Source of the DNA: a virus
Lineage: Duplodnaviria > Heunggongvirae > Uroviricota > Caudoviricetes
Reading direction: 5' to 3' (one strand)
DNA: 64,000 bases
Virus record (IMG/VR): IMGVR_UViG_2617270980_000003
The translations under genes and the position numbers were made by a program. Shown one piece after another: positions 23,573 to 56,095 of this stretch. The notes beneath the pieces were generated by a model. It was not told where the DNA came from, did not search any database, and was given only the letters and a program-made list of their open reading frames with translations. Position 1 is the stretch's first letter. Each line of letters opens with the position of its first letter.

Positions 23573-23605
23573 AATGTTACCGTAATATGTGAGTATCCAT
23601 CGACT

Positions 23606-23635
23606 AGACACTAAGCAAAAAAGCTCCCGAAGGGG
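23606..23635. terminator. bidirectional intrinsic terminator (hairpin flanked by A6 and T8)
   Basis: AAAAAAGCTCCCGAAGGGGCTTTTTTTT read directly. Confidence 0.5.
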
Positions 23636-23701
23636 CTTTTTTTTAAGATTTAACCAAATGAAATAAAAGGATTTATTTCAGGTCATGTCCACTTACCGAC
23701 C

Positions 23702-23726
23702 ACATCTATTCAAAAGCCCCGCAATG
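23702..23726. terminator. intrinsic terminator downstream of ogr (hairpin GCCCCGC-AAT-GCGGGGC with flanking A/T runs)
   Basis: Read directly from sequence. Confidence 0.5.
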
Positions 23727-23737
23727 CGGGGCTTTTA

Positions 23738-23986
23738 TCATATAGTCAAACTTAACTGATCGCGTCCATAGTGCGAAGCGGGAAAGACACCTGCGGGAAT
23801 AAAGTCAGGCGCTAATTTATCGCGCCGCTCACGCTTGGTGACAATTTTTTCAACACTGTTAAGCGTTGTGAATGACAAGCCGCATTCCATATTCTGGCAC
23901 TGATGGTATTGGCGAATCGTTACTTCACTAAGAGGCTTACTGGTGCGAGTGCGGGCCGTAGCGCCGCAGTGTGGGCATTTGAACAT
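23738..23986 (-). CDS. ogr: Ogr/Delta-family zinc-finger late transcription activator
   Basis: MFKCPHCG...RTS...RQYHQCQNMECGLSF matches P2 Ogr as recalled (four-Cys zinc finger). Confidence 0.9.
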   Translation of the reverse strand: MFKCPHCGATARTRTSKPLSEVTIRQYHQCQNMECGLSFTTLNSVEKIVTKRERRDKLAPDFIPAGVFPASHYGRDQLSLTI

Positions 23987-24024
23987 AATGGTGACTCCCC
24001 TGGGGAGTTGAACTCATCACCATT

Positions 24025-25158
24025 CTATTCAGTTTCTGCGATCCAGTCAGATATTTTTGCTTCAAAGTTAAGCTGTGTTGTGAATCCATTACTATCAACA
24101 TCATGCTGTACCTTGCTGATTATCCAGTCCTGGGCGTCAATATCAGCTTTAAAACCGGTTACCGTTGCGTGCATTTCCGGGTACAACTCCGCGCGCCCGC
24201 GCGCCAGGGTGATCGAAAACTCCGCCGCGCCGCGCTGTAACTGCTGCCACTTTGCCGCCGCTGCGCGCCTGGCGGCTTCTTCGTTCTGGAAGGTTTTACG
24301 CATAATAAAAACGTTACCTTCAGCGCCTTCAATATAGTCACCTTCCCTGCTGCTGCTCTTATCCGCTTTTTTAGTTGTGGCACGACGACGGACACTGACC
24401 TTTTTCTTTTTCCCGTAATTCAGATCAAGCCAGTACGCGCGGACGCCGGTATAAGCGTCACGATCAGCAACGCGGAAGCGGTGCCGGTCGCCACTGCTGC
24501 GCGTGATGGCAATCGACGGAATAGCCTTCCCTGATGCTGTGAAACCACCACCCGGCACGATAAATAACAGACTGCCATTTTTTACCGTGGCGATGGCCCC
24601 TAACATTTCCGCCATTCTGGTCAGAAATGACATATCGCTTTCCTGAGTCTGATCGGCGTGGTCAATTTCCACATCCATCAACAGATCGCTGATTTGCGGC
24701 GTCAGGTCATACCGTTTTGCGATAGCGGACACAACCCGCTCCACAGTCACATCATGCCAGGAGACTTCACGCTTCACGTTAAACTCTTCTCTGAAATCTG
24801 CACTCCTGGCGGTCACCGTGATACGGTCTGGCGGCCCGTCATGCGCGACTTCATCAACCGTGTACACGCCCTTATAAACCAGCGCTTCACCCATCCACCC
24901 CAGCCAGAAAGACAACTCAGCACCGCGCAGCGGAAGGGCAACGCCTCCATCAGTATCATCCAGCTCTAATGTCAGCTGATCGGCGTCAAATCCCCTGTTG
25001 TCCGTCAGGCTGATGGATATCACGCGATCTGATAATTCTGTTAACACCTTTCCGCCCTGCCGGACGCTGAATGCCGGTATTTTTAACGCCTCCGTCAGGA
25101 TGTCATCGACACCGCCAGCCGCGCCCGAAATCATACTGCTGATCACTGAAACACTCAT
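24025..25158 (-). CDS. D: P2 gpD-like tail protein (late control D family)
   Basis: About 378 aa, gpD-like; ATG at 25158 preceded by GGGAGGG; ORF-track start at 25272 is TTG. Confidence 0.85.
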   Translation of the reverse strand: MSVSVISSMISGAAGGVDDILTEALKIPAFSVRQGGKVLTELSDRVISISLTDNRGFDADQLTLELDDTDGGVALPLRGAELSFWLGWMGEALVYKGVYTVDEVAHDGPPDRITVTARSADFREEFNVKREVSWHDVTVERVVSAIAKRYDLTPQISDLLMDVEIDHADQTQESDMSFLTRMAEMLGAIATVKNGSLLFIVPGGGFTASGKAIPSIAITRSSGDRHRFRVADRDAYTGVRAYWLDLNYGKKKKVSVRRRATTKKADKSSSREGDYIEGAEGNVFIMRKTFQNEEAARRAAAAKWQQLQRGAAEFSITLARGRAELYPEMHATVTGFKADIDAQDWIISKVQHDVDSNGFTTQLNFEAKISDWIAETE

Positions 25159-25218
25159 ACACCCTCCCGTTTTGCTGAATAATTCCACGCGGGCGCGCGT
25201 GGGAGAATTCGTTTTAGT

Positions 25219-25236
25219 TGTCAGAGAGATAGCACA
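25219..25236. promoter_or_regulatory. Ogr-type late promoter element TGT-N12-ACA in the D/FI divergent intergenic region (putative P_F)
   Basis: TGTCAGAGAGATAGCACA; 18-bp stretch CGTTTTAGTTGTCAGAGA identical to the one upstream of P at 42381. Confidence 0.5.
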
Positions 25237-25311
25237 ACCAGAAAGGCGTGAAGCTGTTACGTCAATCAGCAATCATGGTGGCGAACTCAACAAAACGTAA
25301 TGGTGACAAAC

Positions 25312-26502
25312 ATGTCTGAGACACGTTTTCACGGTGCTCGCACCAAAGAAGAAACCGACATCACGAAGGTAATTAACGACATTGACTCCAGCGTCATTGG
25401 CGTAATTGTCATCGCTGATGACGCGGACGAAGACGCATTTCCACTCAACACCCCAACGCTTATCACGCGGCCTCAGTCGATGCTGGGCAAGGCGGGGAAA
25501 ACAGGGACGCTGTACAAAACGCTGAAAGCCATTTCAGACCAGGCAAGCGCGAAAGTCATTGTTGTTCGTGTCGCCGCAGCCAAGCCGCTGGAAGGCGACG
25601 CAGAAGCGGAAACGCAAGTGCAACTGATTATCGGTGGCTCTGATGCTGAAGGTAACTACACCGGCATGTATGCGCTTCTGACTGCCGAACAGAAGACACA
25701 GTATCGACCGCGCATCCTGGCGGTTCCTGAATACGACACCGAAGAAGTGACGGCACAGCTTTGTGTGATCGCCAAACAGCTTCGCGCCTATGTTTATGCA
25801 AGCTGTAACGGCTGCAAGACGCTGGCGGAAGCCCTCGCGTATCGTAAAACCTTCGCATCACGCGAACTCACGCTGATCTGGCCTGACTACATCGCATATA
25901 ACCAGGTGTCCGGGGAAAATGAAGTATTCCCGGCCCCGGCCTATGCGGTAGGGCTGCGCGCGTTTATTGATAACCAGTACGGCTGGCACCGCTCGCTATC
26001 TAACATTGCCGTCAGCAATGCGCTTGGCATTTCGAAGGATGTTTTCTGGGCGCTTCAGGCTGAAGACAGTGACGCACAGACGCTGAACAACGCCGAAATC
26101 ACCACCATCATCAAGCGTAATGGCTTCCGTTTCTGGGGTAACCGCACCACAGACACCAATGAATTTGTGTTTGAGGTGTACACCCGCACGGCGCAAATCC
26201 TGGCGGACACCATCGCAGAGGCGCAATTTGAAACCATTGACGGGCCACTCACCCCGACCAACGTGAAAGACGTGGTGAGCGCGATTAACAAGAAACTCAG
26301 TGCACTGGTCACAGCTGGCAAGTTGCTTGGCGCGGAAGCCTGGTTTGACATCGTGGACAACGGAACCGCAAACCTGATTCAGGGCAAAGTGGCGATCCGC
26401 TACAAGTACACGCCGGTGCCACCGATGGAAGATTTGACGCTGATCCAGACGTTCACCGATGAATATTTTGAAGGCGCGTTTTCGTCTCTGGGGAGTAACT
26501 AA
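25312..26502 (+). CDS. FI: tail sheath protein (P2 FI-like)
   Basis: About 396 aa; strong collinear match to P2 FI as recalled (FPLN.P.LIT, GFRFWGNRT, YTRTAQ, YKYTPVPP). Confidence 0.92.
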   Translation: MSETRFHGARTKEETDITKVINDIDSSVIGVIVIADDADEDAFPLNTPTLITRPQSMLGKAGKTGTLYKTLKAISDQASAKVIVVRVAAAKPLEGDAEAETQVQLIIGGSDAEGNYTGMYALLTAEQKTQYRPRILAVPEYDTEEVTAQLCVIAKQLRAYVYASCNGCKTLAEALAYRKTFASRELTLIWPDYIAYNQVSGENEVFPAPAYAVGLRAFIDNQYGWHRSLSNIAVSNALGISKDVFWALQAEDSDAQTLNNAEITTIIKRNGFRFWGNRTTDTNEFVFEVYTRTAQILADTIAEAQFETIDGPLTPTNVKDVVSAINKKLSALVTAGKLLGAEAWFDIVDNGTANLIQGKVAIRYKYTPVPPMEDLTLIQTFTDEYFEGAFSSLGSN

Positions 26503-27015
26503 ATGGCGATTCCACCAAAACTACGGCTGTTCACCTGCTTTGTGAACAGCGTGAACAATATCGGCAAAGTGACATCTGTCACGCTGCCAAAACTGACCCG
26601 CAAAACTGACGACTATCAGGGCGGCGGGATGATTGGCTCTGTTGCTGTCGATCTCGGACTGGATAGCGGCGCGCTTGATGCCACGATGGTTGTAGGCGGC
26701 CTGGTTCAGGCTCTGCTACTGGAATACGGCGGCGATCTGGACGGAACGCTTATCCGATTCACCGGGGAATATTACACATCCGGCGAGAGTCAGATCGTTG
26801 ACGTGGAAATGCGCGGCAAATTCACCGAAATCGACGGCGGCGAAAGCAAGCAGGGCGAAGATACGTCCGTAACCTACGCCATTAAAAACACGTACTACAA
26901 GCTGTCAATTGACGATAAGCCCATCTGGGAAATTGACCTGCTGAACTTCGTGTACAAACGCAACGACGAAAATATTTACCCTTCCCGCGTAATGTCTGCG
27001 CTGGGCATGGGATAA
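26503..27015 (+). CDS. FII: tail tube protein (P2 FII-like)
   Basis: 170 aa immediately after sheath gene. Confidence 0.9.
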   Translation: MAIPPKLRLFTCFVNSVNNIGKVTSVTLPKLTRKTDDYQGGGMIGSVAVDLGLDSGALDATMVVGGLVQALLLEYGGDLDGTLIRFTGEYYTSGESQIVDVEMRGKFTEIDGGESKQGEDTSVTYAIKNTYYKLSIDDKPIWEIDLLNFVYKRNDENIYPSRVMSALGMG

Positions 27016-27068
27016 CTAACAACCACTACAGGCGCGGCATCGGGTGATGCCGCCCGGAGATTAAAACG

Positions 27069-27380
27069 ATGACCGAAGAAAACACCGTAACACTGACACG
27101 CCCGATTAAACGCGACGGCAACGAAATCAAAACCATCACGATCACTGACGAAGTGAAACAGGCTGGTACCCTGCGCGGCCTTCGCCTGGTGAACGTGATG
27201 AATATGGACGTGGACAGCATCAGCACCCTGCTAACCCGCTGCACTTCCCCGCGCCTGAAGCTCAAAGAAATCAGCGAAATGGCAACATCTGACTTTGTTG
27301 AACTTTGCGAGGCGCTCACGCCTTTTTTAGCGCCGAAGGAGCCTGGCACGAAGAACGAGACGGAGACGGAGAGCGAGTAA
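27069..27380 (+). CDS. E: tail assembly chaperone E
   Basis: 103 aa between tube and tape measure; contains slippery heptamer. Confidence 0.85.
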   Translation: MTEENTVTLTRPIKRDGNEIKTITITDEVKQAGTLRGLRLVNVMNMDVDSISTLLTRCTSPRLKLKEISEMATSDFVELCEALTPFLAPKEPGTKNETETESE

Positions 27381-27541
27381 ACGCGCCCCACTTTGACCTG
27401 ATCGATGATCTGGTTGCTGATATAGCAGTTATTTTCAACTGGCCGCCCTCAGAGGTTTTCACTATGTCCCTGAGTGAGGTGATAGCCTGGCGTGAACGGG
27501 CGGCTATCCGAAGCGGAAACAGTGAAGATGAAAGACCTTAA
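27069..27541 (+). CDS. tail assembly chaperone E+E' (product of -1 programmed frameshift at T_TTT_TTA, 27323-27329)
   Basis: Heptamer TTTTTTA in E frame; -1 frame continues open to 27541 (FFSAEGAWHEE...), as in P2 E/E'. Confidence 0.75.
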
Positions 27542-30500
27542 TATCCGTGTCGCCTTCAGTGCGATTGATAAGTTAACCCGCCCGGTAAATGCCGCCCGCA
27601 ACTCAGTGGGCGGCTTATCTGAATCCCTCAAAAAAACACAATCGTCTATCAAAGATCTGGAAACGCAATCCCAGGCATTCAACCGCCTGAATGAGCGCGT
27701 TAAAAAGACATCCCAGCAACTCACCACAACACAGCGAGCCTTTGACGGCCTGAATAAAGCACAGAAAAACGGCACGGTACTAACCGACGCACAGCGCGAG
27801 CGCATGACGGCACTGGCAGCGAAACTTGATCGCCTGAATGCCAGCCGGTCACAGGAGACAGCAAAACTCCAGCAAGCGTCCCAGGCGCTGCGCGCGCACG
27901 GCGTTTCACTGGCGGGCGGCGATCGCACAATTCAAAGCGCTATCAGACGCACTGAGCAATACAACCAGACGCTTGAGAGAGAACGGCGACAACTTGCCGC
28001 AGTCACCAACGCGCGCGCCCGTTATGACCGTCTGAGCGCCACAGCGGGCAAATTGCGCACCGGCGGCGCGGTGGCGATTGGCGCAAGCGCGGGAGCGGGC
28101 TACGCTGCCGGACGCTTCCTGGCCCCTGCCGTGGGTTTTGATGAGGAAATGTCGCGCGTAGGCGCACTGACCCGCCTGGATAAAGGCGATGAACAGTTTG
28201 CCGCCCTGCGCGCCCAGGCCAAAAAACTTGGCGCTGAAACCGCATTTACCACGCGAGACGCCGCCAGCGGGCAAGCCTTCCTGGCAATGGCTGGCTTTAC
28301 ACCACAGTCAATTCAGGCTGCGCTGCCTGGCGTTCTGAATATGGCGCTAGCCGGTGGCATGGATCTGGGTGAGTCCGCTGATATCGGTTCAAACATCCTG
28401 ACGCAATTCAAGCTGTCATCAGATCAGATGGACAGGGTTGGCGATACGCTAACAGCCGCATTTACCCGTACCAATACCGACCTGCGCGCCCTGGGCGACA
28501 CAATGAAATACGCGGGGCCAGTGGCGGCTAATCTGGGTATTAGCCTGGAAGAGGCATCCGCTATGGCGGGGATGCTTGCCAATAACGGTCTGCGCGGCAG
28601 TGACGCGGGTACAGCATTACGTTCCAGTCTATCCCGCCTTGCTTCACCACCAAAAGCCGCGGCTGATGCTCTGAAAGAGCTAGGCGTGTCGGTTGCCGAC
28701 GCCAACGGGAAAATGCGCCCGATGGAAACGGTACTGTTAGACCTTTTCAAAGCCACACAGAAATACGGGCAGGTTGATCAGGTATCTTTCTTCAAAAATA
28801 TCGCCGGTGAAGAGGCCTTTGTGGGCCTCCAGACGCTGGTACAGGCGGCAGGCTCGGGAGAACTACAAAAGCTCACAAAAGAACTTCAGGGCGCTGCCGG
28901 TGAATCCGCTACCGTCGCAAAAAAAATGGCGGACAACCTGGGCGGGGATCTAAAAGAACTCGATAGCGCCTGGGAAGCATTCCGTATCCAGATTGAAGAA
29001 CTGGCGGACGGCGCACTGCGAAAACTCACCCAGGCACTGACCGGCACGATCGGCGTGATGACTGAATGGGCGAATAAGAATCCGCAGCTATCAAAAACCC
29101 TTCTGGCTGTTGGCGGCAGTGTGCTGGCCCTCACCGCCGGGATTGGCGCAACGTCCCTGGCTATTGGCTTACTTCTGGGGCCACTGGCAAAACTTCAACT
29201 CGGCTTTGCCCTGCTAACCAGCGGGAGCGGGCTGGGTGGCGCGGTGACACTGTTCAGCCGCCTGGCTGGCGTTATTTCCGGGCCGCTTGGCGGCATCCGT
29301 GGCTGGGGTGTCGTCTTCAGTAGAATGACCGGCAACGCCGGGAAACTGGCTGGCGCGCTTGCCCCATTGAGAGGACTGCTTGCCGCCGCGTTTATCTCAC
29401 CAGGTGCCGCCCTGGGCGGAATTGTAAAAGGGCTTGGTAGTCTCCTGCTTCGCCTGACCGGCATACCTGCAATCATGGGGATCGCTAGCTCGGCCCTCTC
29501 GATGCTCGGCGGCGCGCTGTCATTGCTGTTAAGCCCGATCGGGCTGATTGGCGCGGCCTTCATTGCCACAGGGTTGCTTATCTGGCGATTCTGGGAGCCG
29601 ATCAAAGCCTTCTTTGCGGGCTTCTTTGCCGGTGTAATGCAGGCGCTTACGCCGTTCCGTGATGCCTTCGCCGGACTGGCCCCCGTCTTTGATGTGATCT
29701 CAAATGCCGTTTCTCAGTTGTGGCAGTGGTTCAGCAACCTGCTTTCACCAATGACGACCAGCAAAGAGACATTGGATAAATGCGCAAGCGCTGGGGAGAC
29801 GTTCGGCAAAGTGTTTGGCCTGGCAATTCAGGGGCTAATGTTACCTCTGACTGGATTGGCCAAAATGGTTGGCTGGATACTTGAAAAGCTGGGGCTGATT
29901 CCGTCCGGGATTGAAGCGGCGAAAGCAAAAGCGGAGAAAGTGCAGAAGGAACTCACACCGGCAGGATTGGCTATGCTGCAGGACAAGGTTGGCACGCTCA
30001 CTGTCGATATGAAAGCAGTAACCGCGCCACCTATCGCCCCACCATCACCAGTGATTGCTGTTGATACGGGAACTCAACGGCGGTTACAGAAAATTGCGGA
30101 CAATACCGGCGGGATGCTGGATGCAACCAAAAAGCGGATCGGCCCTGGCGATATCGTGTTTAAGAATCTGCCCCGCGCATTAGCCGTCCACGGCGCATGG
30201 CAGGAAGCACAATCACCCCCAGGCGCAAACCTGGCCCAACTTAGCGCGCGCCCGGTTATCGCGGCGGCATCAGCACCGATTAAACCGGCAGTTGAAGTAC
30301 AGGCTATTAGCGGGCAATCCAGTAAACAAGCCAGCAAACCGGCGCAAAACACCGCTCCTGATGAAATACATATTCACATTCATATGCACGGCGATCTCAG
30401 CAACGACGCCCGCGACATTGCACGGATGGTGACTGATGCAGTTGGGGCAGAACTTAACAAGCGTTCCCGCTCTGGTAGCAGTTTCAGAGACAAAGATTAG
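27528..30500 (+). CDS. T: tail tape measure protein (P2 T-like)
   Basis: About 990 aa, Ala/Gly-rich with hydrophobic central segments, between E' and U; ORF-track start at 27492 is GTG, ATG at 27528 chosen. Confidence 0.85.
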   Translation: MKDLNIRVAFSAIDKLTRPVNAARNSVGGLSESLKKTQSSIKDLETQSQAFNRLNERVKKTSQQLTTTQRAFDGLNKAQKNGTVLTDAQRERMTALAAKLDRLNASRSQETAKLQQASQALRAHGVSLAGGDRTIQSAIRRTEQYNQTLERERRQLAAVTNARARYDRLSATAGKLRTGGAVAIGASAGAGYAAGRFLAPAVGFDEEMSRVGALTRLDKGDEQFAALRAQAKKLGAETAFTTRDAASGQAFLAMAGFTPQSIQAALPGVLNMALAGGMDLGESADIGSNILTQFKLSSDQMDRVGDTLTAAFTRTNTDLRALGDTMKYAGPVAANLGISLEEASAMAGMLANNGLRGSDAGTALRSSLSRLASPPKAAADALKELGVSVADANGKMRPMETVLLDLFKATQKYGQVDQVSFFKNIAGEEAFVGLQTLVQAAGSGELQKLTKELQGAAGESATVAKKMADNLGGDLKELDSAWEAFRIQIEELADGALRKLTQALTGTIGVMTEWANKNPQLSKTLLAVGGSVLALTAGIGATSLAIGLLLGPLAKLQLGFALLTSGSGLGGAVTLFSRLAGVISGPLGGIRGWGVVFSRMTGNAGKLAGALAPLRGLLAAAFISPGAALGGIVKGLGSLLLRLTGIPAIMGIASSALSMLGGALSLLLSPIGLIGAAFIATGLLIWRFWEPIKAFFAGFFAGVMQALTPFRDAFAGLAPVFDVISNAVSQLWQWFSNLLSPMTTSKETLDKCASAGETFGKVFGLAIQGLMLPLTGLAKMVGWILEKLGLIPSGIEAAKAKAEKVQKELTPAGLAMLQDKVGTLTVDMKAVTAPPIAPPSPVIAVDTGTQRRLQKIADNTGGMLDATKKRIGPGDIVFKNLPRALAVHGAWQEAQSPPGANLAQLSARPVIAAASAPIKPAVEVQAISGQSSKQASKPAQNTAPDEIHIHIHMHGDLSNDARDIARMVTDAVGAELNKRSRSGSSFRDKD

Positions 30501-30512
30501 GAGAGCAAAACA

Positions 30513-31001
30513 ATGATGATGGTTTACGGAATGTTCGTCTTTGAGTTAAAAACCATTCCCCACCAACAATTACAGCAGTCAAAGACATGGCGGCATGTAA
30601 AGAACGAGCGCATAAACCGATCGGCAAAGTGGCAATACATTGGTGCAGGTGACGATCAGATTACCTTATCCGGTGTTTTGTACCCATCAGTGACCGGCGG
30701 TAAGGTGAGTCTAACTGTGCTCGATACACAGGCCTACACCGGACGCCCCTGGCCTCTTATCAGCGGCACCGGGCGGATCTATGGCATGTATTCGATAACG
30801 CAGCTTCAGACCACCGATACTGAATTTGACCAGTATGGGGAGCCGAAGAAAATAGAATTTACGATCACGTTTCAAAGGCAGGATGAAGACCTGCGCGAAA
30901 GCCTCCAGTCTTCATCAGTGAGTGATTTACTCGGCAACCTGCAAAACACAGCCAACTCAGCGCTGAATAATATCAGCGCCGCCGCATCCAGTCTGTTTTA
31001 A
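30513..31001 (+). CDS. U: tail protein U (P2 gpU-like)
   Basis: 162 aa immediately after tape measure. Confidence 0.85.
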   Translation: MMMVYGMFVFELKTIPHQQLQQSKTWRHVKNERINRSAKWQYIGAGDDQITLSGVLYPSVTGGKVSLTVLDTQAYTGRPWPLISGTGRIYGMYSITQLQTTDTEFDQYGEPKKIEFTITFQRQDEDLRESLQSSSVSDLLGNLQNTANSALNNISAAASSLF

Positions 31002-31167
31002 ACAAGTAAAAATATACCCCTCGGATTGGTTTTCACCGAGGGGAGCAACAAGAGACCTAGCTCTAATTTTGTTCAATCATGTGTAAATTGTGCAGACTAA
31101 ATGATTGTCCTTAGAATTTTTGTAAGTAAAATAACCACAATTTTTCCTAATTGCGCGACTAGACTCT

Positions 31168-32138
31168 ATATGAAAAACCTTTCCTCAATTGATTACGCAA
31201 AACTTTTCTTTGCGTTTTGTATCATTTTTATACACACAGACATTTTAGGCGGCAACAGTAATTATATAGGATATGTTACTTGCCAGGGACTGCTAAGGAT
31301 TGCAGTGCCATTCTTTTTCATTACTAGTGGATATTTTTATTTTTCTGTAATGCAAAAAAATAAAATTAAAAAATGGTTTTCTCACAATATAAAAACCTAT
31401 GCTCTATGGACGCTTCTTTACTTACCAATAATACTAGGATTAGTTGGTTTTATTAGGGCGGGTAAGCCTTTAGCGACAGACCTTACATATTTATCTCTAA
31501 ATGCAGTATTTGGATTTTGGCACTTATGGTTTTTCCCTGCCCTGATAGTATCGGCATTATTAACATTACTTTTAGCTAAGCTAAAAGATCGCACATTAAT
31601 AATCATATGCTGCATACTTTATACGTGCGGCACGTTACTTCAATATCGCGCAAATTATTCCATTGACATAAATCGTGACATATGGTCTCTCGCTACAGTT
31701 TTCTTTTCCAGAAACGGTCTTTTCATGGGTTTTCCATTGTTTATGCTTGGATACCTTATAAATAAAAATAACATAAGAAATAACAATACATATTTACTCA
31801 TTGGTTCCATTATTTTGGTCATCATTGAGGCATCCGTAAATTATTCATATGGCACATATACCTTTGATATGCTTTTTTCACTTCCATTCGCTGGTGTTTT
31901 TGTTTTTTTAAAAGTTCTAGATATCACCCTGAAAACAAAAAACACCTTCACAATTCGCGAGCACTCAAAAAACATATATCTTATACAAATCTATGCCATT
32001 CAGTTTGCAAAACAATTTGCATCTGATTGGTTAGTCATAACAACAATCGCATGCACTATTTGCATTAGCTATTCAATAGCTAATATCATTAAAGATAATT
32101 TAATTGCAAACTTTAGACTAAAAAGCCTATCAAATTAA
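31168..32138 (+). CDS. membrane acyltransferase (acyltransferase-3 family, Oac-like), AT-rich cargo at the P2 Z/fun position
   Basis: About 323 aa, multiple hydrophobic helices, low GC versus neighbours; located between tail fibre assembly gene and the sheath block. Confidence 0.75.
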
Positions 32139-32566
32139 TCCTCAGGGATATCAGGCCAGATAATGTCGGGGGCTTTTGATGTGTCAATACGCATTAATAG
32201 CACCCGATATTTCTTCCACTTCGCAAGCTGAATAACTTCATCATCGGTTGAAATACCAGCTTCAATCGCATCCTGCCGCCACGCAATTTCTGTACCTGCA
32301 TTTTCAGCCAAGTCTTTTTTTTGCTGTATAGCTAACGCAATTAACTGATCGGCTGTAGGCTCTGATACATCAACCCATACAGGCTGACCGGAAGCGTCGC
32401 CTCCTCTACCTTTTCCTTCTGGCGGCCTTCCTGTGTATTTCTGATAAATATCAGATTCAACTTCAACAATGTCATCAGGCCATGTATTCGTTTTTTCATA
32501 GTCTGATTTCATTGACTCAAAAAAGAATGAGTTATTCTTAGCACTGAAATATATATTACTAAACAT
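32135..32566 (-). CDS. G: tail fibre assembly protein (P2 G-like)
   Basis: About 143 aa directly downstream of tail fibre gene; C-terminal conserved WPD motif region. Confidence 0.75.
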   Translation of the reverse strand: MFSNIYFSAKNNSFFFESMKSDYEKTNTWPDDIVEVESDIYQKYTGRPPEGKGRGGDASGQPVWVDVSEPTADQLIALAIQQKKDLAENAGTEIAWRQDAIEAGISTDDEVIQLAKWKKYRVLLMRIDTSKAPDIIWPDIPED

Positions 32567-32568
32567 AA

Positions 32569-41453: not shown

Positions 41454-41476
41454 GTGTTTTATTCTCGCTTGCGTGG

Positions 41477-42407: not shown

Positions 42408-42472
42408 ACCCAAACAGCGGGAACGGCCCACGCGCGCGGGTTAATCTCTCCATCGAAACGAGAGGACACCGC

Positions 42473-47013: not shown

Positions 47014-47292
47014 TAAGCCATATTATCTTTTATCTCTATTTTGAAGCAATAAAACTAGAAGTAAACTCTAAAAAGCCGCCAATCCCGGCGGTCTTTGAAG
47101 GGCATTACAATTTCGTGGCGCTCAGTTATACATGGATTCTTAGCAAGGACCAAGCCGCGACACACTACATTGTAGCTCCCCGCTATGTGATTTGAAGTTG
47201 CTGGCAATCAAAAAATGCTCCCTTTAGTACCACTAATTTTGTAGAGTATGGTTAACTTTGAAAAGTTGTAATACGTCAACTAAGGAACAGCG

Positions 47293-48513: not shown

Positions 48514-48825
48514 TCAATCATCATCTTGGTCATCCCCAGTGTCGCGAACGCATGATTTTGACTCAAAGTATTTTTTTTCCGCAGCGGTAATCAGGGCTTG
48601 GTGTTCAGGGAAATCACGAAACACGTCTACTGCGGGCCATTCAATTTTCGTCACAACCAACTTAGGCCTACTTTCCACCTCAGCTTCATCCTGGCTGATA
48701 TAATGACTTTTTGACTCACGTTCCTCATGCGAAGATTCTCGATAATAGAGCCAATTTTGATAGTCAGCTTCCCGTTCATAATCATCAAAGTACTTGCCCA
48801 CGCTTCCCCCCATTAATGAGCGCAA
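48514..48825 (-). CDS. hypothetical acidic small protein downstream of gene A
   Basis: 103-aa ORF overlapping the A stop region; Asp-rich C-terminus. Confidence 0.35.
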   Translation of the reverse strand: MRSLMGGSVGKYFDDYEREADYQNWLYYRESSHEERESKSHYISQDEAEVESRPKLVVTKIEWPAVDVFRDFPEHQALITAAEKKYFESKSCVRDTGDDQDDD

Positions 48826-51364
48826 CCCTTAATCTTTCAAGGAGTACATCATTCTCCCGCTTCCTTTCCGCTTTAACTCTCTGCTTAACTTCATCGCGGC
48901 GCTGTTCGACTACTTCTACCCCCTTCAGCTTCATAGTACAAGCCAAGCAGAGCTTTTCATCGCCATAGGTTATATCATCCTGATTTAACTCCGCATTACA
49001 ATCTCTAGCCCTACAGTAAATTGCTTTGGTCTTTTCTACCAGATAGCCATCCTTCAGATAAACATGTCGATCATCAAAAGAAAGCAAAGCCCCGCGACGA
49101 AGGGCATCAATATCAGGCTTGGACTTAATTCCCCAAGAGGAAAGCTGATAGCGAAGGTGAGCAGTCATTGGTGTGGCCTCCACAACACTGCTCCGCCGGG
49201 TTGCTGATTCATCGCGGATAGCCGCCGCCACTTTCATGTAATTTTCAGCGCGCTCCTGATCTGCGCTATCGCAATCTGAAGCGGCAATAGCATTGGCAAG
49301 CGACTCAAACACATCAGCAGGTGATTTTTGCTGTTTTGGTTTGTAATTTCTGATGCTCTCATTAAGCCGTTTTTTCTGCTCTCGGCTCATTTGACCAATT
49401 TCATATTGTTCTGGATCTTCAGGCGGTGGATTTACCGCCCCTTGATTTGTATGTTTTTTGTACTCAGTACAGTTATTGACACGAGTCCAAGAGGGCGCGG
49501 GCGCGCCCTTAAGGTCAAAACCTCGATCGGCGGCGTCGTCTGCTTTTGGCTTCTTTTTGACAATGCGATAAGAATGGAGGCGGGTTTCAACCGGAGGAAC
49601 GGTCGATGCTGGCATGACCACCCCTTTAATAACCCTCTGAAACTCGCCGTAACTGCTCGGCTCATCCCGATATTGATACCAGGCGCGCAACACAAGCCTA
49701 TTCCGTGTCACGAACGGACCACCCTGCAAGGTGATGTAGTCCTGCCAGTTCCCGGCATGGGCGGCGCGGTGTAACTCACCGAAAACCGGACTGATTCGAT
49801 CTGCCATTTCCTGATTCTTCAGGCGGCGTAACTCACGCCAGACGGACACCGGCGCGCCACCCAGAAACTGAAACTGACGAATGCCCCAGCATGAAGCCCA
49901 GGCAGTAGCGTGTTTTGCTGTCTCCTTCAGTGGGCGTCCGCTTTCGTCGTCGCTTTCACCATCCAGTGCATAACCGTCGATGTTTTTAGATATGTACTTA
50001 ACGACATATCCAGTAGCGCTCCCCAAAGCCGGATCTATCGGCTTAAGTTCAAAGCGGGGCTGTTTGCCATTCTTGCCGGTGAGTTCATCAGCATCTTCAC
50101 GCGTGGCGTAGTCTTCCATCACTTCCAGCAATTCGCCGGTATGCTCTGGGGCTGTGAACAGAAGGCCATGCCAATGCGGAGTACCATCATGGTGAGACTC
50201 TGCAACACGAAGGCCAAAAACAGAAATCTCACGGCGCGCAAGCTCCGCGCGGATCAGTTGCCAGACGCGATTAAGGTAGTTTTGTGTCTTGCGGGGGCTG
50301 GCTCCGTTCCATTTGCGGTTACGATGCCCGAACGCTGTAAAGGCATGATATTTAGACGGCGCGGTCAGGGTGAAGAAACTGCCGGCAAACCCGCTTTCCG
50401 TTGCCACCTTCTCAAATCCACCAATGCGCGTCATCAACTCAACACGGCGCTTTTCAGGATTAGAAATGCTCTTATCAATCTGCTCTATCAGCGAAATGCG
50501 CTCACCAGTTACCTGATCTTCAAGTTCAAGGCGGCTCATAATTGCGCGGCTACGCTTACGGCGTGAATCCCACTGCGTAACGTGGTGTTTGCTGCAATAC
50601 GGTGAAACATCGCGGCGCACGTCACCATAGGCAATGTGCAAATGCTCGCGCCAGCGGCGGGCGTACTTGCGCAGGAGGCGTGACCAAAAGCGATCATGAA
50701 GGGTTTTTTGTATTGCTGCTGTCGCTTCATCAAGCGCCATCCGGCGCTTCTTCGCCCAGGGCGGCACTAACCTGAAATACGCAATCAGCCTGGAGCCTTC
50801 ACGCAGCATGCGTTTGGTGTATTCAGTATCGTTGAACACACTTGCACCCTCGCTCACTTCAGCCAAAACAGCATTGGCATAAATGGCTATGTCCTGAGCC
50901 AGCAAATCAATATCTTCATCCGTGCAATCCGCCAGATTATTAAAGCGGCGGACAAGTTCACGCAGATTTTCAAACGAGTGAAACAGTGGGTTTAGTTCAG
51001 AGAAAATGATCCACTCATTGTCTTCTGGCACAGCGTATTGTTTCGTGACGTTTCTGACGTGTGGAAGCTCGCGCTTAACGATGTCGCGCAACTTCAGTTT
51101 TGCGATATGGCGCCCTTTATCCTCGTGAACGGTATTTATGTAAGAGGCAATGCGGCGGCGAATGAAGATAGGCAACGGCTTGAGGGGATTTTCAACCCAG
51201 GCGAAAAACTCCTGCTCTTGACCCAATTCATATAGATCAACAGCGGGAGCCTTATCAACGAAGATGGCGGCTTTTGGCTCATTCCAGGCGTAAGCATACC
51301 GGGCTGGCTCGATAGAGCCTCCCGGCATGTTGGTCATGCTATGAGAGCGGCGAAATGAAGACAT
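48785..51364 (-). CDS. A: replication initiation protein A (rolling-circle endonuclease)
   Basis: 859 aa; TLTAPSKYH, HHDGTPHWH, GYVVKYISKNIDGYALDG, TAWAS motifs match P2 gpA as recalled. Confidence 0.9.
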   Translation of the reverse strand: MSSFRRSHSMTNMPGGSIEPARYAYAWNEPKAAIFVDKAPAVDLYELGQEQEFFAWVENPLKPLPIFIRRRIASYINTVHEDKGRHIAKLKLRDIVKRELPHVRNVTKQYAVPEDNEWIIFSELNPLFHSFENLRELVRRFNNLADCTDEDIDLLAQDIAIYANAVLAEVSEGASVFNDTEYTKRMLREGSRLIAYFRLVPPWAKKRRMALDEATAAIQKTLHDRFWSRLLRKYARRWREHLHIAYGDVRRDVSPYCSKHHVTQWDSRRKRSRAIMSRLELEDQVTGERISLIEQIDKSISNPEKRRVELMTRIGGFEKVATESGFAGSFFTLTAPSKYHAFTAFGHRNRKWNGASPRKTQNYLNRVWQLIRAELARREISVFGLRVAESHHDGTPHWHGLLFTAPEHTGELLEVMEDYATREDADELTGKNGKQPRFELKPIDPALGSATGYVVKYISKNIDGYALDGESDDESGRPLKETAKHATAWASCWGIRQFQFLGGAPVSVWRELRRLKNQEMADRISPVFGELHRAAHAGNWQDYITLQGGPFVTRNRLVLRAWYQYRDEPSSYGEFQRVIKGVVMPASTVPPVETRLHSYRIVKKKPKADDAADRGFDLKGAPAPSWTRVNNCTEYKKHTNQGAVNPPPEDPEQYEIGQMSREQKKRLNESIRNYKPKQQKSPADVFESLANAIAASDCDSADQERAENYMKVAAAIRDESATRRSSVVEATPMTAHLRYQLSSWGIKSKPDIDALRRGALLSFDDRHVYLKDGYLVEKTKAIYCRARDCNAELNQDDITYGDEKLCLACTMKLKGVEVVEQRRDEVKQRVKAERKRENDVLLERLRVALINGGKRGQVL

Positions 51365-51546
51365 TAAGCCGCCTCAGATGAAAACCGTGTCGCCTGGCTG
51401 TATCGCTCTTGCGTCACGTTCAGAGTAGGTGATCAGGTCTGTATTGCTGTAACCACCCTCGCCCAGAACTTCAACGCGAGTGATCCAATAATTACGGCGC
51501 GGGAGAACATCCAGCACCTTTGTCACTACAACCTCAACGGTATTCA

Positions 51547-52011
51547 TCAGAATGGCGCTCCATCATCAAAATCGAACGGGGGAGGCGTCGTCTTCCATGT
51601 CACCGGTTTACCTGGTTTACATTTCCGCGCGGCCTTGACTGTTGGATAGTTGAGGGAATGCCGGACAACTTCATCAGTCCACAAATCGTGCGCCTCGAAA
51701 TCAACGCGCCAGCAACCTTTGCTAATGCAGCGGCGTGAAAAAACGCGCGTAACAACGGCGCAAACCGTATGACTTTCAGGCTCGGCTTCAGCGGCAGGAT
51801 CAAAGCCAAGAAAAACAAGCTCACTACTGTGAGACTTAATCAGGGGATCAAGAACCGCCCCGAAAGACTTACGAAGCGTCTTTTCAACATCAGGGCCAGC
51901 CAAAAGACCTGCATAACCAGCGTGAATTAATGCAGCCTCTTTTGCCTTTTCTAACGCCGCTATCGCGCCTTGCAGATAGCTCACGTGATCGTTAATGGAC
52001 GGAGTAATCAT
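51547..52011 (-). CDS. hypothetical protein between dam and A
   Basis: About 154 aa from MITPSIN, start overlapping dam stop; not recognised as P2 B. Confidence 0.4.
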   Translation of the reverse strand: MITPSINDHVSYLQGAIAALEKAKEAALIHAGYAGLLAGPDVEKTLRKSFGAVLDPLIKSHSSELVFLGFDPAAEAEPESHTVCAVVTRVFSRRCISKGCWRVDFEAHDLWTDEVVRHSLNYPTVKAARKCKPGKPVTWKTTPPPFDFDDGAPF

Positions 52012-53003
52012 CAGAAGTCCTCTGCTGCTGTGTATGAATCGCAGATCTCGCAGTTGCGACAGCAAAAGGTATCGCTTCCAGATTCATAGCCATCGCCAGC
52101 AACGGCAGGGCAACAGGTAGCGCAATAACCACGCCCTACTTGCCCGCACTCGTCACAGACGAGCAGCGAACCAATCACCTCACCCGCGAGATTGCGTGTT
52201 TTTGCTCCCACAGAACGCCGGACTTCGAATGAGTTAAGGGTGAACGGGTAGTAAATTTGGCGCGTTTCCGGGGTGTCACTGCCGGAAATAACAGAGGGTA
52301 TTTTTGCCTGGTTGTAGAGGCGTGAAAGCATCGCAACCAGGGCGCGATGGTCTTCATCAGTAAAGGGCTTACCGTATGCAGTAAAATTTGCAGTCTCGCT
52401 GGCTGGCAGGTATGGAGGATCGCAATAAACCACGCAGCCTGAATGCCCGATAGATAGAGGAATTGTTTCTCTGAAATCACCATGCAGGAACATTGCCCCT
52501 TTGTCCCAAGCCCTTTTTGCAAAATGCTGAATCTCAGCCACAGGGAAAATTGGCTTCTTACGAAAACCAAAAGGAACGTTGAATTCATTCTTTAAATTAA
52601 CACGGTAAACACCGTTGTAGCAGTGACGATTCAAATAAAGAAATAGCGCTGCATATTTAACTAATTCATCATTTGTATATTGCTCTCTATGCCCTGCGTA
52701 CTCGCGATTAAAAATATTGAAGTCATCACGATTTATGTAATATGCATCTTCATTATTACCAGTCAAAAACAAGGCGGATGCATAAGTTAAAAGCGCTTCT
52801 GTGTTGCGCTTAACCATAGAGAAGAAATTAATTAGGGCTGCATTGCTATCACACAGAATATAGGTTTTATAGTCTGTATTCAGAAAGACGCTACCACTAC
52901 CCACAAAAGGCTCAACGAGGCATTCACCCTGCGGCAGAGCATCCAGTACATGAGGCATCGCGCGAGACTTGCCGCCAGCCCAGATCAGAGGGGAGTTAAT
53001 CAC
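52011..53003 (-). CDS. dam: DNA adenine methyltransferase (Dam-like, D12 class) with Cys-rich C-terminal extension
   Basis: PLIWAGGK near N-terminus, FVGSGSVF (AdoMet), DPPY catalytic motif; GTG start at 53001-53003 with AAGGAG 7 nt upstream; C-terminal ~50 aa contains about 10 Cys. Confidence 0.8.
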   Translation of the reverse strand: MINSPLIWAGGKSRAMPHVLDALPQGECLVEPFVGSGSVFLNTDYKTYILCDSNAALINFFSMVKRNTEALLTYASALFLTGNNEDAYYINRDDFNIFNREYAGHREQYTNDELVKYAALFLYLNRHCYNGVYRVNLKNEFNVPFGFRKKPIFPVAEIQHFAKRAWDKGAMFLHGDFRETIPLSIGHSGCVVYCDPPYLPASETANFTAYGKPFTDEDHRALVAMLSRLYNQAKIPSVISGSDTPETRQIYYPFTLNSFEVRRSVGAKTRNLAGEVIGSLLVCDECGQVGRGYCATCCPAVAGDGYESGSDTFCCRNCEICDSYTAAEDF

Positions 53004-53163
53004 TTTTTTGCTCCTTGATTTCTGCGGCCTGTTCTCTGTTGTCGATCCAGTTTTCCAGGCTGCGATAAATTTCATTGGTGGACAGTTTTTCTTTTTTCAG
53101 CAAGGTTAATTTGATACGTAACAATCCAAGCAGGTGCGCGCGTTCATTTGTTTGAATTGTCAT
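53001..53163 (-). CDS. small hypothetical protein (about 54 aa) translationally coupled to dam
   Basis: ATG at 53161-53163, stop overlapping the dam GTG start (GTGATTAA); not in ORF track because below its size cut-off. Confidence 0.3.
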
Positions 53164-53243
53164 AATCAACCCCCTGAAAAAAGATAAAGCGAAGCCCCGG
53201 TAAAAACGCCGTAAATAAAATGATTTAGATTGCAGTTAATTAA

Positions 53244-53525
53244 TTAGCGAGCGCCGCTATTCCAGTATTTTTCTAATTCAATACTGAAGGTGTCACATAT
53301 AGAGCCACCCGGAAGAATAGAAAATTGAATGCCCGTTTCCTTACATCGCACCTCAAAACCATTTTTCGCTATATCAGACAGTGCCATTCCCTGAACAACA
53401 TTACGCGACTTGCTGTGTTGGTGATTTGGACCATAGCCACTACGGGACGGCGTGCGGGTTCCGTCCTGCCTGGAAGCATTGACGCTCTGGCGAGCGTTCA
53501 GAATAGCTGCGGTTGAAGTAGTCAT
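53244..53525 (-). CDS. hypothetical protein
   Basis: 93-aa ORF in early operon downstream of cox. Confidence 0.3.
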   Translation of the reverse strand: MTTSTAAILNARQSVNASRQDGTRTPSRSGYGPNHQHSKSRNVVQGMALSDIAKNGFEVRCKETGIQFSILPGGSICDTFSIELEKYWNSGAR

Positions 53526-53719
53526 TATTTCCCCCGATGAAGCTGATCAATCGTCTGACGGGCCTGAGACAGACCGAAGTCCAGCCCCAGATAATTTCCG
53601 CCTTTGGTGATTTGGTAGCGCTGCCGTGAATACGGCTTTTTGCGCGGCAACTTCACGATCGTGAAGCCGCGATAAATTGCTGTTTTGCTGTTGATTTGGA
53701 TAAGCATCGCAAACTCCAT
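53525..53719 (-). CDS. hypothetical protein
   Basis: 64-aa ORF immediately downstream of cox. Confidence 0.35.
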   Translation of the reverse strand: MEFAMLIQINSKTAIYRGFTIVKLPRKKPYSRQRYQITKGGNYLGLDFGLSQARQTIDQLHRGK

Positions 53720-53723
53720 GTAG

Positions 53724-53999
53724 TTATGAACGATCGCCCAATCCTAACCACATCAACCACCCCTCTCTGATTTCCTTCGGACGGCTTTCATATGCTAGTT
53801 TCATGCCGTTGTTCCATGCCGGAAGATATACCCAGTATTCTCCCGCACGCCCAGACGTGGATTGCGGATCGGTCATTTCAATAACGGGCAACTTCCCTTT
53901 TTCGATCATTCCCTTCACGGCTGCCGGTGTTTTACCGATGAGTTTTGCAAACTCCTGGTAAGGAACCGCGTCAGTTGCACTTACAAGCTGTCTGTTCAT
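53724..53999 (-). CDS. cox: Cox regulatory protein/excisionase
   Basis: 91 aa; near-identical to P2 Cox as recalled (DAVPYQEFAKLIGK...GKLPVIEMTDPQSTSGRAGEYWVYLPAWNNGMKLAYESRPKEIREGWLMWLGLG). Confidence 0.92.
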   Translation of the reverse strand: MNRQLVSATDAVPYQEFAKLIGKTPAAVKGMIEKGKLPVIEMTDPQSTSGRAGEYWVYLPAWNNGMKLAYESRPKEIREGWLMWLGLGDRS

Positions 54000-54119
54000 C
54001 TGTTACATTCTCCTATCGTGCAACTAATTGCTCTTAATGGGCTTTAATTGCTCTGAATGAATAACCAGAAAGGGGTTAAACACACCCTTTCGAGTCAATA
54101 TTCTTAGATAGGAGTAACT

Positions 54120-54419
54120 ATGTCAACCCCGATATTTGAAAAGATAAAACTCATCCGTGAATCAGAAAGGTTAAACAAGAGGCAATTCAGCGAGTTAACG
54201 GGCATTGCCTATAGCACGTTGGGGGGCTACGAATCTGGAGTTAAAAGTCCCGGCGTAGAAGCCATAATGAAAATGCTACAGCACCCCAGATTTAGTAAAT
54301 ACACCCTGTGGTTTATGACCGATCAAATTGCTCCTGAAGCCGGTCAGATTGCACCGGCACTCGCACACTTTGGGCAAGATGTAACAACATCGCAGCACTC
54401 AGACCAAAAGACTGGTTAA
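54120..54419 (+). CDS. C: immunity repressor C
   Basis: 99 aa; matches P2 C as recalled (KYTLWFMTDQIAPEAGQIAPALAHFGQ...SQHSDQKTG); divergent from cox. Confidence 0.92.
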   Translation: MSTPIFEKIKLIRESERLNKRQFSELTGIAYSTLGGYESGVKSPGVEAIMKMLQHPRFSKYTLWFMTDQIAPEAGQIAPALAHFGQDVTTSQHSDQKTG

Positions 54420-54564
54420 CTATTCACCGTGCGTATATTTATTACAAAATTTGTTTACTTGTTGCTAAGTATGACAAATACAACAAATTTGCTGGAGATA
54501 CGCGCAAAGCCAAAGTAACAGCAGCAAAGAAAAAGCAACTTATCGCCATTCGTCCGGGGGTCTT

Positions 54565-55578
54565 ATGACAATTAAGAAACTCGATGATGGTCGTTATGAA
54601 GTGGACATTAGACCTAGCGGACGCAACGGAAAACGCATCCGCAGGAAGTTTGACAAGAAAAGTGAGGCAGTGGCCTTTGAGAAGCACACGCAATACAACC
54701 ACCACAACAAGGATTGGTTAGCGAAGCCGACCGATAAAAGGCAACTTTCCGAATTGATTCAAATCTGGTGGGAACTCAAGGCAAAGCACGAGGAATGGGG
54801 AAAGTACAATCGGGGAAAGGTCGAGAAATTCGCGGCGATAACCGGTGATCCGTGCGCGTTTCAGATTACAAAGACGGTAATTAGCCAGTATGTTGCAGCT
54901 CGGCGAGGTGAAGGCGTTAAGCCATCTACCATCAATCGGGATCTGACATGCATCAGCGGAATGTTTACCGCTCTGATTGAGGCCGAGCTATACCATGGCG
55001 AACACCCGATAAGAGGACGTAAACGACTCAAAGAGGAGAAGCCCGAAACGGGCTATTTAACCAACGAGGAAATTACCGCCCTTTTCTCGCGGCTCGATGG
55101 TGACAATAAAAAAATAGCGGTTCTTTGCCTAAGCACGGGCGCTAGGTGGGGTGAAGCGGCAAAACTGAAAGCCGAGCACATCATCCATAATCGGGTGACG
55201 TTTGTTAAAACCAAAACGAACAAACCCCGAACGGTGCCAGTATCGGCAGAAGTATGTGAAATACTCACCAGCGTGAAGCGCGGCTTCCTGTTCCCGAATG
55301 CCGATTACACGTTGTTCCGGCAGGTACTGAAAGAGGTAAAGCCCGACCTGCCAGCAGGACAGGCAACCCATGCTCTACGGCACAGTTTTGCTACGCATTT
55401 CATGATTAACGGAGGAAGCATTATCACGCTACAAAGGATACTCGGTCACGCGCGCATAGAGCAGACAATGGTCTACGCGCACTTCGCGCCAGAGTATTTA
55501 CAAGATGCCGTAACACTCAATCCGTTAAAGGGCGGCATTGAACCCGAAAACGTCCACACAGTGTCCACACTCGGGTGA
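54565..55578 (+). CDS. int: tyrosine integrase (P2 Int-like)
   Basis: 337 aa; near-identical over long stretches to P2 Int as recalled (MTIKKLDDGRYEVDIRPSGRNGKRIRRKFDKKSEAVAFEK...HALRHSFATHFMINGGSIITLQRILGH.RIEQTMVYAHFAPEYLQDA). Confidence 0.95.
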   Translation: MTIKKLDDGRYEVDIRPSGRNGKRIRRKFDKKSEAVAFEKHTQYNHHNKDWLAKPTDKRQLSELIQIWWELKAKHEEWGKYNRGKVEKFAAITGDPCAFQITKTVISQYVAARRGEGVKPSTINRDLTCISGMFTALIEAELYHGEHPIRGRKRLKEEKPETGYLTNEEITALFSRLDGDNKKIAVLCLSTGARWGEAAKLKAEHIIHNRVTFVKTKTNKPRTVPVSAEVCEILTSVKRGFLFPNADYTLFRQVLKEVKPDLPAGQATHALRHSFATHFMINGGSIITLQRILGHARIEQTMVYAHFAPEYLQDAVTLNPLKGGIEPENVHTVSTLG

Positions 55579-55882
55579 TTTATAGCGGCTTTCAGTGGCT
55601 TTATGTGGTGCTCAAACCCGCATTACACCGCTGAAAGCCCGTATATCAAAGGGCTACCAACGCCCCCGATGGAGCCTTCATTTTCACTTTCTTAAATCTA
55701 ACGATAGACGGCTAACATTTAAGTATTGTGAAATATTATCAAATGTAATCATCATTGATTTACAAAAGATACATTTTGCCCCGAAAGGATTCCTGTCAGA
55801 AACATCAAAAGATGATGTTCTATACTGAGAACCATGGCAACACGGGCATCTAAAGTGAATATGGTTTGTAATATTTTCTACC

Positions 55883-56095
55883 TCAAAGTGCCACAACATG
55901 AACAGCCGCGGGGCCTTTAGGTCCGTTCTCAATACCAAATTCGACTTCCTGATTCTCAGTTAACGTTTTGAAATCGTTGCTCTGAATAGCTGAGAAATGG
56001 ACAAACACATCTTTGCTACCATCTTTCGGCGTGATGAAACCAAAACCTTTTTCAGGGTTAAACCATTTCACTAAACCAGTCATTTTGTTAGACAT
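55883..56095 (-). CDS. CspA-family cold shock protein (prophage-borne, cspI/cspB-like)
   Basis: [37 protein letters not shown] cold-shock domain. Confidence 0.9.

Follow-up and report, generated by a model that had tools for sequence, protein, structure and literature searches.

Integrases of P2-type phages vary in core specificity and target intergenic sites (PMC3448106). L-413C is a P2-like phage from Yersinia pestis, a host without a matching bacterial attachment site (attB), and use of an unknown secondary site is possible there (Nilsson and Haggard-Ljungquist 2011, PMC3448106). Prophages within prophages are described from Shiga toxin-producing and enteropathogenic Escherichia coli, in which lambdoid phages occupy defective lambdoid prophages (Nakamura et al. 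2021, PMC8112680); the sites occupied are copies of chromosome-derived attB (yecE, ykgJ/ecpE, ompW) with homologous flanks (PMC8112680). The locus described here is a stretch of 64,000 nucleotides (the window) from IMG/VR virus record IMGVR_UViG_2617270980_000003, in which a prophage of the P2 family lies inside a lambdoid prophage of the Qin type. P2 itself reportedly uses imperfect secondary sites, a classical observation said to go back to Barreiro and Haggard-Ljungquist in 1992. The nested arrangement is very probably the product of a temperate P2-family phage that was integrated by its own P2-type integrase (Int) at a secondary site inside the resident Qin-type prophage.

Insertion limits, attachment cores and target sites

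Window positions 22600-23639 (gnsB, ynfN) and 55659-56800 (ynfQ/ymcF, cspI, rzpQ) are each 99.7% identical to Qin-type prophages of E. coli (5,426 complete genomes compared). In uninterrupted Qin-type prophages the two segments are adjacent DNA. In the uninterrupted relative L001 (strain CFSAN018748; gene order terminase, DUF1441/Nu1, gnsB, ynfN, ynfQ, cspI, Rz, lysozyme, holin) they join base for base at positions 4023-4045 of that contig, and the insert is flanked on both sides by one other prophage, whose two parts are contiguous. It separates ynfN from ynfQ (ymcF-like) and is placed in a hairpin downstream of cspI-ynfQ. Neither junction is spanned, and the nested form is not found, in any of the 5,426 complete E. 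coli genomes. No transfer RNA genes are present in the window, and a tRNA target is rejected. Long direct repeats flanking the insert are likewise absent, the repeat search having yielded nothing beyond promoter-box families and families at chance level; it was alignment to the uninterrupted prophage that revealed the imperfect core. A sequence-only reading of the window had placed a P2-type prophage inside a lambdoid one, between the csp side and the gns/terminase side of a single Qin-like prophage, and had proposed aligning the junctions to an uninterrupted relative. P2 hallmark genes are present as intact open reading frames (ORFs), and that alignment brings the flanks to one locus and yields an imperfect 23-bp core with P2-type arms. 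Its account of the flanking genes also agrees with Pfam (Q, class II holin, lysozyme, Rz with embedded lipoprotein, cspI; Nu1 and head/tail genes). The insertion that it drew at 23600-55900 stands, with limits slightly too wide: the cores lie at 23622-23644 and 55661-55683, a period of 32,039 bp.

The phage core is a 23-mer, CGCCCCCGATGGGGCTTTTTTTT, different from that of P2. It is so identified because it reads in full on both sides of the phage in another host, at the junctions of contigs L007 and L008 (int side) and L013 (ogr side), in which the phage lies between dgcP (yeaP) and yoaF. Its right half, GGGCTT(A/T)TTTTTT, is the only part that resembles the P2 core, which is absent from the window with up to three mismatches allowed. 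By homology to annotated P2 sites, the phage attachment site (attP) possesses arm-type direct repeats on both sides of the core, a site for integration host factor (IHF) and Cox sites. The arm-type repeats fit the P2 consensus tgTGGaCa (PMC3448106). About 80 bp separate the core from the int stop both here and in P2; between the core and the ogr stop there are about 93 bp here versus about 101 bp in P2. The P' arm is present in 824 E. coli genomes, and among the matches listed the alignment always ends before the phage core. P2-type prophages with homologous ogr-side arms but with other cores and sites occur in E. coli ES1 (L003) and E. coli S42 (L004), upstream of fieF next to pfkA and downstream of pflB; they illustrate a change of core with conservation of the arms.

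The exact core is present in 4 of 185,579 species-representative genomes, three of them Kluyvera and one a metagenome-assembled genome labelled Klebsiella. Kluyvera cryocrescens NBRC 102467 carries the empty site, a hairpin with a 9-bp stem followed by T8; the DNA on either side of it agrees at 99.5-99.6% with the bacterial flanks in L007 (int side) and L013 (ogr side). In two further Kluyvera representatives the yoaF-dgcP site is occupied by related prophages, with int regions 80-90% identical. The hairpin between yoaF and dgcP is the perfectly matching attB, identical to the attP core at 23/23 positions. The Qin site is identical at 16/23, and because an exact site exists in Kluyvera it is regarded as a look-alike, secondary site. 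No such hairpin is found in the yoaF-dgcP spacer of E. coli K-12, and no match to the Kluyvera attB was obtained in the complete E. coli genomes searched. Between Kluyvera and E. coli contigs the phage DNA differs by 0-4 single-nucleotide polymorphisms (SNPs) over 6.3-7.1 kb (at least 99.94% identical). A difference this small between genera indicates that the spread of the phage was recent, presumably in the form of virions. The intact ORFs and the near-identical copies in two genera point indirectly to an active phage, which is presumed to be active in E. coli too. The sequence-only reading had found no P2 core at either end and had suspected a secondary or novel site, correctly on both counts. 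Its description of Int as essentially that of P2 was too strong: the two proteins are 81% identical, and the rest of the phage is distant from P2.

The uninterrupted Qin site reads AAAAAGCTCCCGAAGGAGCCTTCATTTT. Its core, AGCTCCCGAAGGAGCCTTCATTT, is a GC-rich hairpin that shares with the phage core the central CCCGA(A/T)GG, a symmetric GC dyad and part of the T-rich side. It is free in 569 of the 5,426 complete E. coli genomes (about 10%). The left junction of the insert is AGCTCCCGAAGG joined to GGCTTTTTTTT, the right junction CGCCCCCGATGG joined to AGCCTTCATTT. The two junction cores form an imperfect 23-bp repeat, 16/23 identical. In the left core, bacterial alleles occupy positions 1, 4 and 10 and phage alleles are found from position 13; in the right core, phage alleles occupy positions 1, 4 and 10 and bacterial alleles are found from position 13. 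The switch of alleles falls between positions 10 and 13, and the two junctions are reciprocal in this respect. The crossover is confined to CCCGAWGG, in which the partners differ at one base, and position 10 would lie inside the overlap region.

Int together with IHF would catalyse integration at the Qin hairpin, a secondary site being used since E. coli lacks the exact one. The attP of P2 layout (arms, IHF site on the ogr side, Cox stretch on the int side, core as above) would recombine with the look-alike, and strand exchange would take place inside CCCGAWGG with one heterology between the partners.

Origin and consequences of the nesting

Several points weigh against this reading. A match of 16/23 is not rare: three other 23-mers in the window have seven mismatches or fewer, and raw identity therefore fails to account for the choice of site. 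A subset of core positions must matter for the choice of the Qin hairpin. Heterology within the overlap usually lowers reactions of tyrosine recombinases. Neither an attP circle nor a repaired attB from a carrier strain was found in searches of IMG/VR and the JGI metagenomes (exact attP, 0 matches in IMG/VR; int-side junction with either allele, 0 in JGI metagenomes; attL/attP pattern, 0 in JGI metagenomes and 1 in IMG/VR, the latter being the same Qin prophage junction). Nine of ten ogr-side junctions in E. coli are identical to that of the window, with Qin flanks 0-3 SNPs apart over 5.9 kb, and for this reason L019 is the one contig that speaks for recurrent integration.

L019, from sample SRR27758606, has the phage allele T at core position 10 and lies in a divergent Qin variant, in which the terminase region is 90.7% identical. 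Because a phage allele at the junction is joined here to a divergent Qin, the contig suggests a second, independent integration with the same position and orientation. A natural attB with the T allele was considered as the origin of this base and rejected: the T version of the Qin site has no full-length match in the 571 complete E. coli genomes that carry the site, and the matches listed are all 61/62 (A allele). Under segregation of a heteroduplex, the int-side junction of L019 would read CCCGAAGG, reciprocal to the T on the ogr side; CCCGATGG would point to mismatch repair or mutation.

The uniformity of the remaining junctions would also follow from a single rare integration into Qin, with later vertical descent and homologous recombination between Qin-type prophages, the hairpin not being a preferred site. 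The int-side junctions are all identical, and the phage is present in 0 complete E. coli genomes despite the free sites, as expected from such a history. It is opposed by L019, in which a different Qin variant is paired with a phage-allele base that is unmatched at full length in the free sites, and by the unrelated sources of the carriers (a Hadza gut metagenome, several SRA runs, four NCBI assemblies). A single event is held to be unlikely, though it has to be reckoned with.

In a public assembly index, 88 blocks contain the exact Int protein and 69 the exact Ogr protein. Of the 24 contigs read for each protein, 21 (Int) and 19 (Ogr) show the same Qin junctions. Dozens of public assemblies have the nested form; one of the contigs, from NCBI, is 4.65 Mb long, and GCA_040813255.1 and GCA_036881495.1 derive from carrier isolates. 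IMG/VR contig L026, with an Int 100% identical, was considered as a virion-form genome and rejected, as it again contains the Qin junction. From the preponderance of Qin-type contigs it might be argued that the phage naturally uses the Qin hairpin above all and has E. coli as its main host, the Kluyvera site being a side branch. This is highly improbable: the reconstructed attP core fits the Kluyvera site fully and the Qin site only in part, the related prophages with similar int regions are also found at the Kluyvera site, and the contig counts mirror how E. coli has been sampled, with one clone probably predominating. An assembly chimera, or a joining of flanks from different lambdoid prophages by rearrangement, deserves practically no credence, repetitive and often misassembled as lambdoid prophages are, since the flanks join base for base in uninterrupted prophages, the junctions carry reciprocal core halves, and the same junctions recur in many independent assemblies (NCBI, ENA, Logan, IMG/VR; the 4.65-Mb contig among them), which confirms that they are not an assembly artefact.

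Integration by the phage's own Int at the Qin look-alike would have consequences for both prophages. The lambdoid prophage has gained 32 kb between its lysis genes and Nu1 and, owing to this, should no longer be packageable. At the right junction, the cspI-ynfQ hairpin is left without a T-run (U-tract) on the transcribed strand (55661-55700, minus). The next terminator-like site on that strand lies inside int, at 55054-55040. Because the hairpin loses its U-tract, csp transcripts may run antisense into int. The cox-to-A operon (minus) lies downstream of the Q-antiterminated late transcript of the lambdoid prophage and shares its strand; speculatively, this transcript would run antisense through int and C and in the sense direction to cox-A. 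Taken together, a gateway hairpin that lets a Kluyvera phage lysogenise E. coli while disabling the resident lambdoid prophage, combined with induction of the P2-type prophage by SOS-triggered read-through, is conceivable but decidedly doubtful. The orientation and the frequency of the site are observed; read-through and its effect are speculation. P2 is classically non-inducible, and a response to SOS is not otherwise expected. If such read-through occurred, SOS induction of the resident lambdoid prophage could switch on the P2-type prophage.

Gene content of the insert and of the surrounding prophages

Intact member of the family Peduoviridae (P2 family), with a Novemvirus-like backbone and a P2-like int-C-cox module. 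Intact ORFs are present for the P2 hallmarks Q, P, O, N, M, L, X, K, R, S, V, W, J, I, H, G, and for FI, FII, E, T, U, D, ogr, int, C, cox and A. Cox is 80% and C 63% identical to the P2 proteins; structural and replication proteins are 30-55% identical (tblastn of P2 proteins). The head module is of the P2 family: portal Q, terminase P and M, scaffold O, P2-type capsid N, completion L (PF04860, PF03237/PF17289/PF06056, PF05944, PF05929, PF05125, PF05926; all above curated cut-offs). A contractile tail and baseplate set is present (FI, FII, E, T, U, D, V, W, J, I, R, S; Pfam and tblastn), as is a regulatory and replication set comprising the Ogr/Delta zinc finger (PF04606), the gpA rolling-circle initiator (PF05840) and the Cox/C switch (PF10743). 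Int is composed of an arm-binding domain, Int_N (PF24624), and a catalytic domain, Phage_integrase (PF00589).

Not a member of the genus Peduovirus: a megablast match to P2 is absent, the FI-U block is inverted and the structural proteins are only as similar as stated. When the insert's first 25 kb (positions 23640-48600) are compared by megablast with 50,697 phage records, 14% is covered, at 73% identity. In the phage collection, the best match to the sheath comes from Enterobacter phage phiT5282H (Novemvirus; 74% amino acid identity). Gene order is shared with it, including the FI-U block divergent from D-ogr and the dam gene in the early operon, and about 18 of 32 kb are collinear at 68-72% nucleotide identity; the two phages differ in integrase, immunity and cargo genes. 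The genus criterion of the International Committee on Taxonomy of Viruses is a nucleotide identity of at least about 70% over the genome. The insert and phiT5282H are too dissimilar for one species, and over the whole genome they probably fall short of the genus criterion. The inverted tail block was considered as a novelty and rejected, since phiT5282H has the identical order and the E. coli ES1 prophage has it as well.

The D/FI and O/P regions have in common a 43-nt element with TGT-N12-ACA, and the P2 record has an annotated activator site between pO and pP. Phages of the Peduoviridae have 19-nt cohesive ends (cos) next to Q; the corresponding region here is tentatively assigned as cos. 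The acyltransferase-3 gene downstream of U sits where P2 carries fun(Z); its product is a candidate surface-polysaccharide acetylase for lysogenic conversion. The KAP-family NTPase gives its best PADLOC match to candidate system PDC-S20 (E 1e-74), with weaker matches to PifA and QatA; the YaaC-like protein has no PADLOC match. The two may form an uncharacterised defence pair.

In the lambdoid prophage, the low-GC cargo between Q and holin (GC about 0.38) comprises an AraC-type regulator and a 2-thiouracil desulfurase/DUF1722 protein, both on the strand of the late transcript, and a lipocalin on the opposite strand. A Mu-like transposable prophage is inserted in its J gene, and three phages (lambdoid, P2-type, Mu-like) are thus present at one locus. 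The Mu-like terminus is TATAACCAGGTGAATCATTTGATACC, with repeated CATTTGATAC motifs. J homology ends at 5251 (junction 5250/5251), beyond which intact J differs; J is truncated at codon 579. The 10 bases TATAACCAGG beside the Mu-like end were considered as host DNA and rejected; they are assigned to the Mu-like element because they belong to neither J nor Nu1 sequence. In contigs L011 and L015, from two further carriers (about 8329-8360; compare window 21657), the same Mu-like end adjoins a Nu1-like gene, not J, and about 16 kb from Nu1 to J is missing on the side of the Mu end. This arrangement could have arisen by a second transposition or by a deletion adjacent to the Mu end.

Table 1. Features of the window, with the position, strand and basis of each assignment.
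Feature	Position	Strand	Basis or remark
Mu-like transposable prophage, left end, inserted in lambdoid J	1-5250	-	Mu-transpos_C, HTH_Tnp_Mu_1
MuB	939-1880	-	Mu-like prophage, not part of the P2-type element
MuA	1954-4041	-	Mu-like prophage, not part of the P2-type element
c-type repressor	4459-5004	+	Mu-like prophage, not part of the P2-type element
Host Qin-type lambdoid head/tail genes	5251-21963	-	ORF map, Pfam, synteny with L001 and L012
Lambdoid J, truncated	5238-6977	-	Within the head/tail block
Terminase A	19298-21397	-	Within the head/tail block
Nu1-like DUF1441	21406-21963	-	Pfam; within the head/tail block
gnsB and ynfN, lambdoid cargo directly left of the insertion	22996-23572 (gnsB 22996-23169, ynfN 23342-23572)	-	99.7% to annotated E. 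coli genes
Left (ogr-side) junction core, AGCTCCCGAAGGGGCTTTTTTTT	23622-23644	+	3 mismatches to phage core, 0 expected by chance; alignments to attB and Kluyvera junctions
attP P arm	23645-23737	+	By-eye homology to annotated P2 P arm
IHF-site homologue in P arm	about 23655-23682
Arm-type Int sites in P arm	about 23683-23707
ogr terminator hairpin in P arm	about 23714-23735
ogr (Ogr/Delta zinc finger) and D	23738-25158 (ogr 23738-23986, D 24025-25158)	-	Pfam PF04606, PF05954; 38% and 50% amino acid identity to P2 Ogr and D
Divergent D/FI late-promoter region	25159-25299 (TGT-N12-ACA box 25219-25236)		Direct repeat family
Tail module FI, FII, E (with E'), T, U	25300-31001	+	Inverted versus P2, as in phiT5282H; tblastn, Pfam, collinearity
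Acyltransferase-3 family membrane protein, cargo between U and G	31101-32138	+	PF01757, E 7e-19; GC about 0.37
Late genes G, H, I, J, W, V, S, R, lysis, X, L, M, N, O (window order)	32135-42316	-	Pfam, tblastn
Phage lysozyme	37892-38440	-	In the late-gene block
O/P region with 43-nt element	42317-42388 (copy of element 42381-42423)
Terminase large subunit P and portal Q	42389-45258	+	Terminase_6N, Terminase_6C, Terminase_5, Phage_portal
Putative cos region, reverse complement GACGGGGGGAAAGCCCGC versus P2 cos GGCGAGGCGGGGAAAGCAC	45430-45465		9-nt exact match GGGGAAAGC only, at the expected place next to Q
Cargo at the P2 old/tin position: KAP-family NTPase and YaaC-like protein	45664-48444 (NTPase 45664-47013, YaaC-like 47293-48444)	+	GC 0.37-0.42
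Early operon: cox, small ORFs, Dam-type methyltransferase, A	48785-53999 (cox 53724-53999)	-	Phage_Cox, MethyltransfD12, Phage_GPA
Replication protein A	48785-51364	-	Phage_GPA
Dam-type methyltransferase	52011-53075 (as listed ORF; 330 aa by gene callers)	-	MethyltransfD12
Immunity repressor C and tyrosine integrase Int	54120-55578 (C 54120-54419, Int 54565-55578)	+	P2 identity; Pfam
attP P' side: two GTCCACA arm repeats in int 3' end, then homologue of P2 Cox-binding stretch	55552-55660 (repeats 55552-55569)	+
Right (int-side) junction core, CGCCCCCGATGGAGCCTTCATTT	55661-55683	+	Alignment to attB and Kluyvera junctions
ynfQ (ymcF-like) and cspI, lambdoid cargo directly right of the insertion	55684-56095 (ynfQ 55684-55872, cspI 55883-56095)	-	Homology to annotated genes
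Host lambdoid late control/lysis region	56459-63166	-	Pfam; DUF1327 also in lysis region
Rz/Rz1 (DUF2514 Rz with embedded lipoprotein ORF)	56459-56956	-	Pfam
Lysozyme with hydrophobic N-terminus	56953-57486	-	Pfam
Class II holin	within 58364-58663	-	Pfam
Low-GC cargo of lambdoid prophage	58770-61566		Between Q and holin
Q antiterminator	61722-62114	-	Pfam PF06530
DUF968	62117-63166	-	Pfam

Comparison with described systems

The locus offers a base-level example of a temperate phage that crosses a genus boundary into a host lacking its attachment site. By supplying look-alike sites, resident or cryptic prophages can enable unrelated phages to lysogenise a wider range of hosts. The two sites found in nature (23/23 and 16/23), together with the polymorphism at the junctions, hint at the bases that a P2-type Int may need and at the place of cutting. 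Tools for prophage finding tend to merge or mis-delimit nested elements such as this one.

With P2 the insert shares the closely related Int and Cox and the same layout and spacing of attP (arm repeats, IHF site, Cox stretch). As with P2-type integrases in general, the target is intergenic and is not a tRNA gene (PMC3448106). It differs from P2 in its core, in having its exact site in Kluyvera and not in E. coli, and in the position of its secondary site inside another prophage. As with the L-413C / W-phi core, a phage is found in a host that lacks the matching core. For L-413C the secondary site was never identified, whereas here the exact and the surrogate site are both defined at base level.

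A published description of a P2-type prophage nested in Qin was not found in literature searches. With the nested prophages of Nakamura et al. the locus shares site-specific integration inside another, defective prophage. The two cases differ in that the integrated phage is here a member of the P2 family and the site a hairpin that merely resembles the phage core, not a copy of a chromosome-derived attB. No similarity between the Qin and Kluyvera sites was seen outside the core, and as the flanks lack homology to the exact attB, the sign of an intra-prophage site copied from the chromosome is absent. The nesting of a P2-type phage in Qin is a fresh instance of the prophage-in-prophage phenomenon already described, which it extends from pairs of lambdoid phages to a P2-family phage in a lambdoid prophage.

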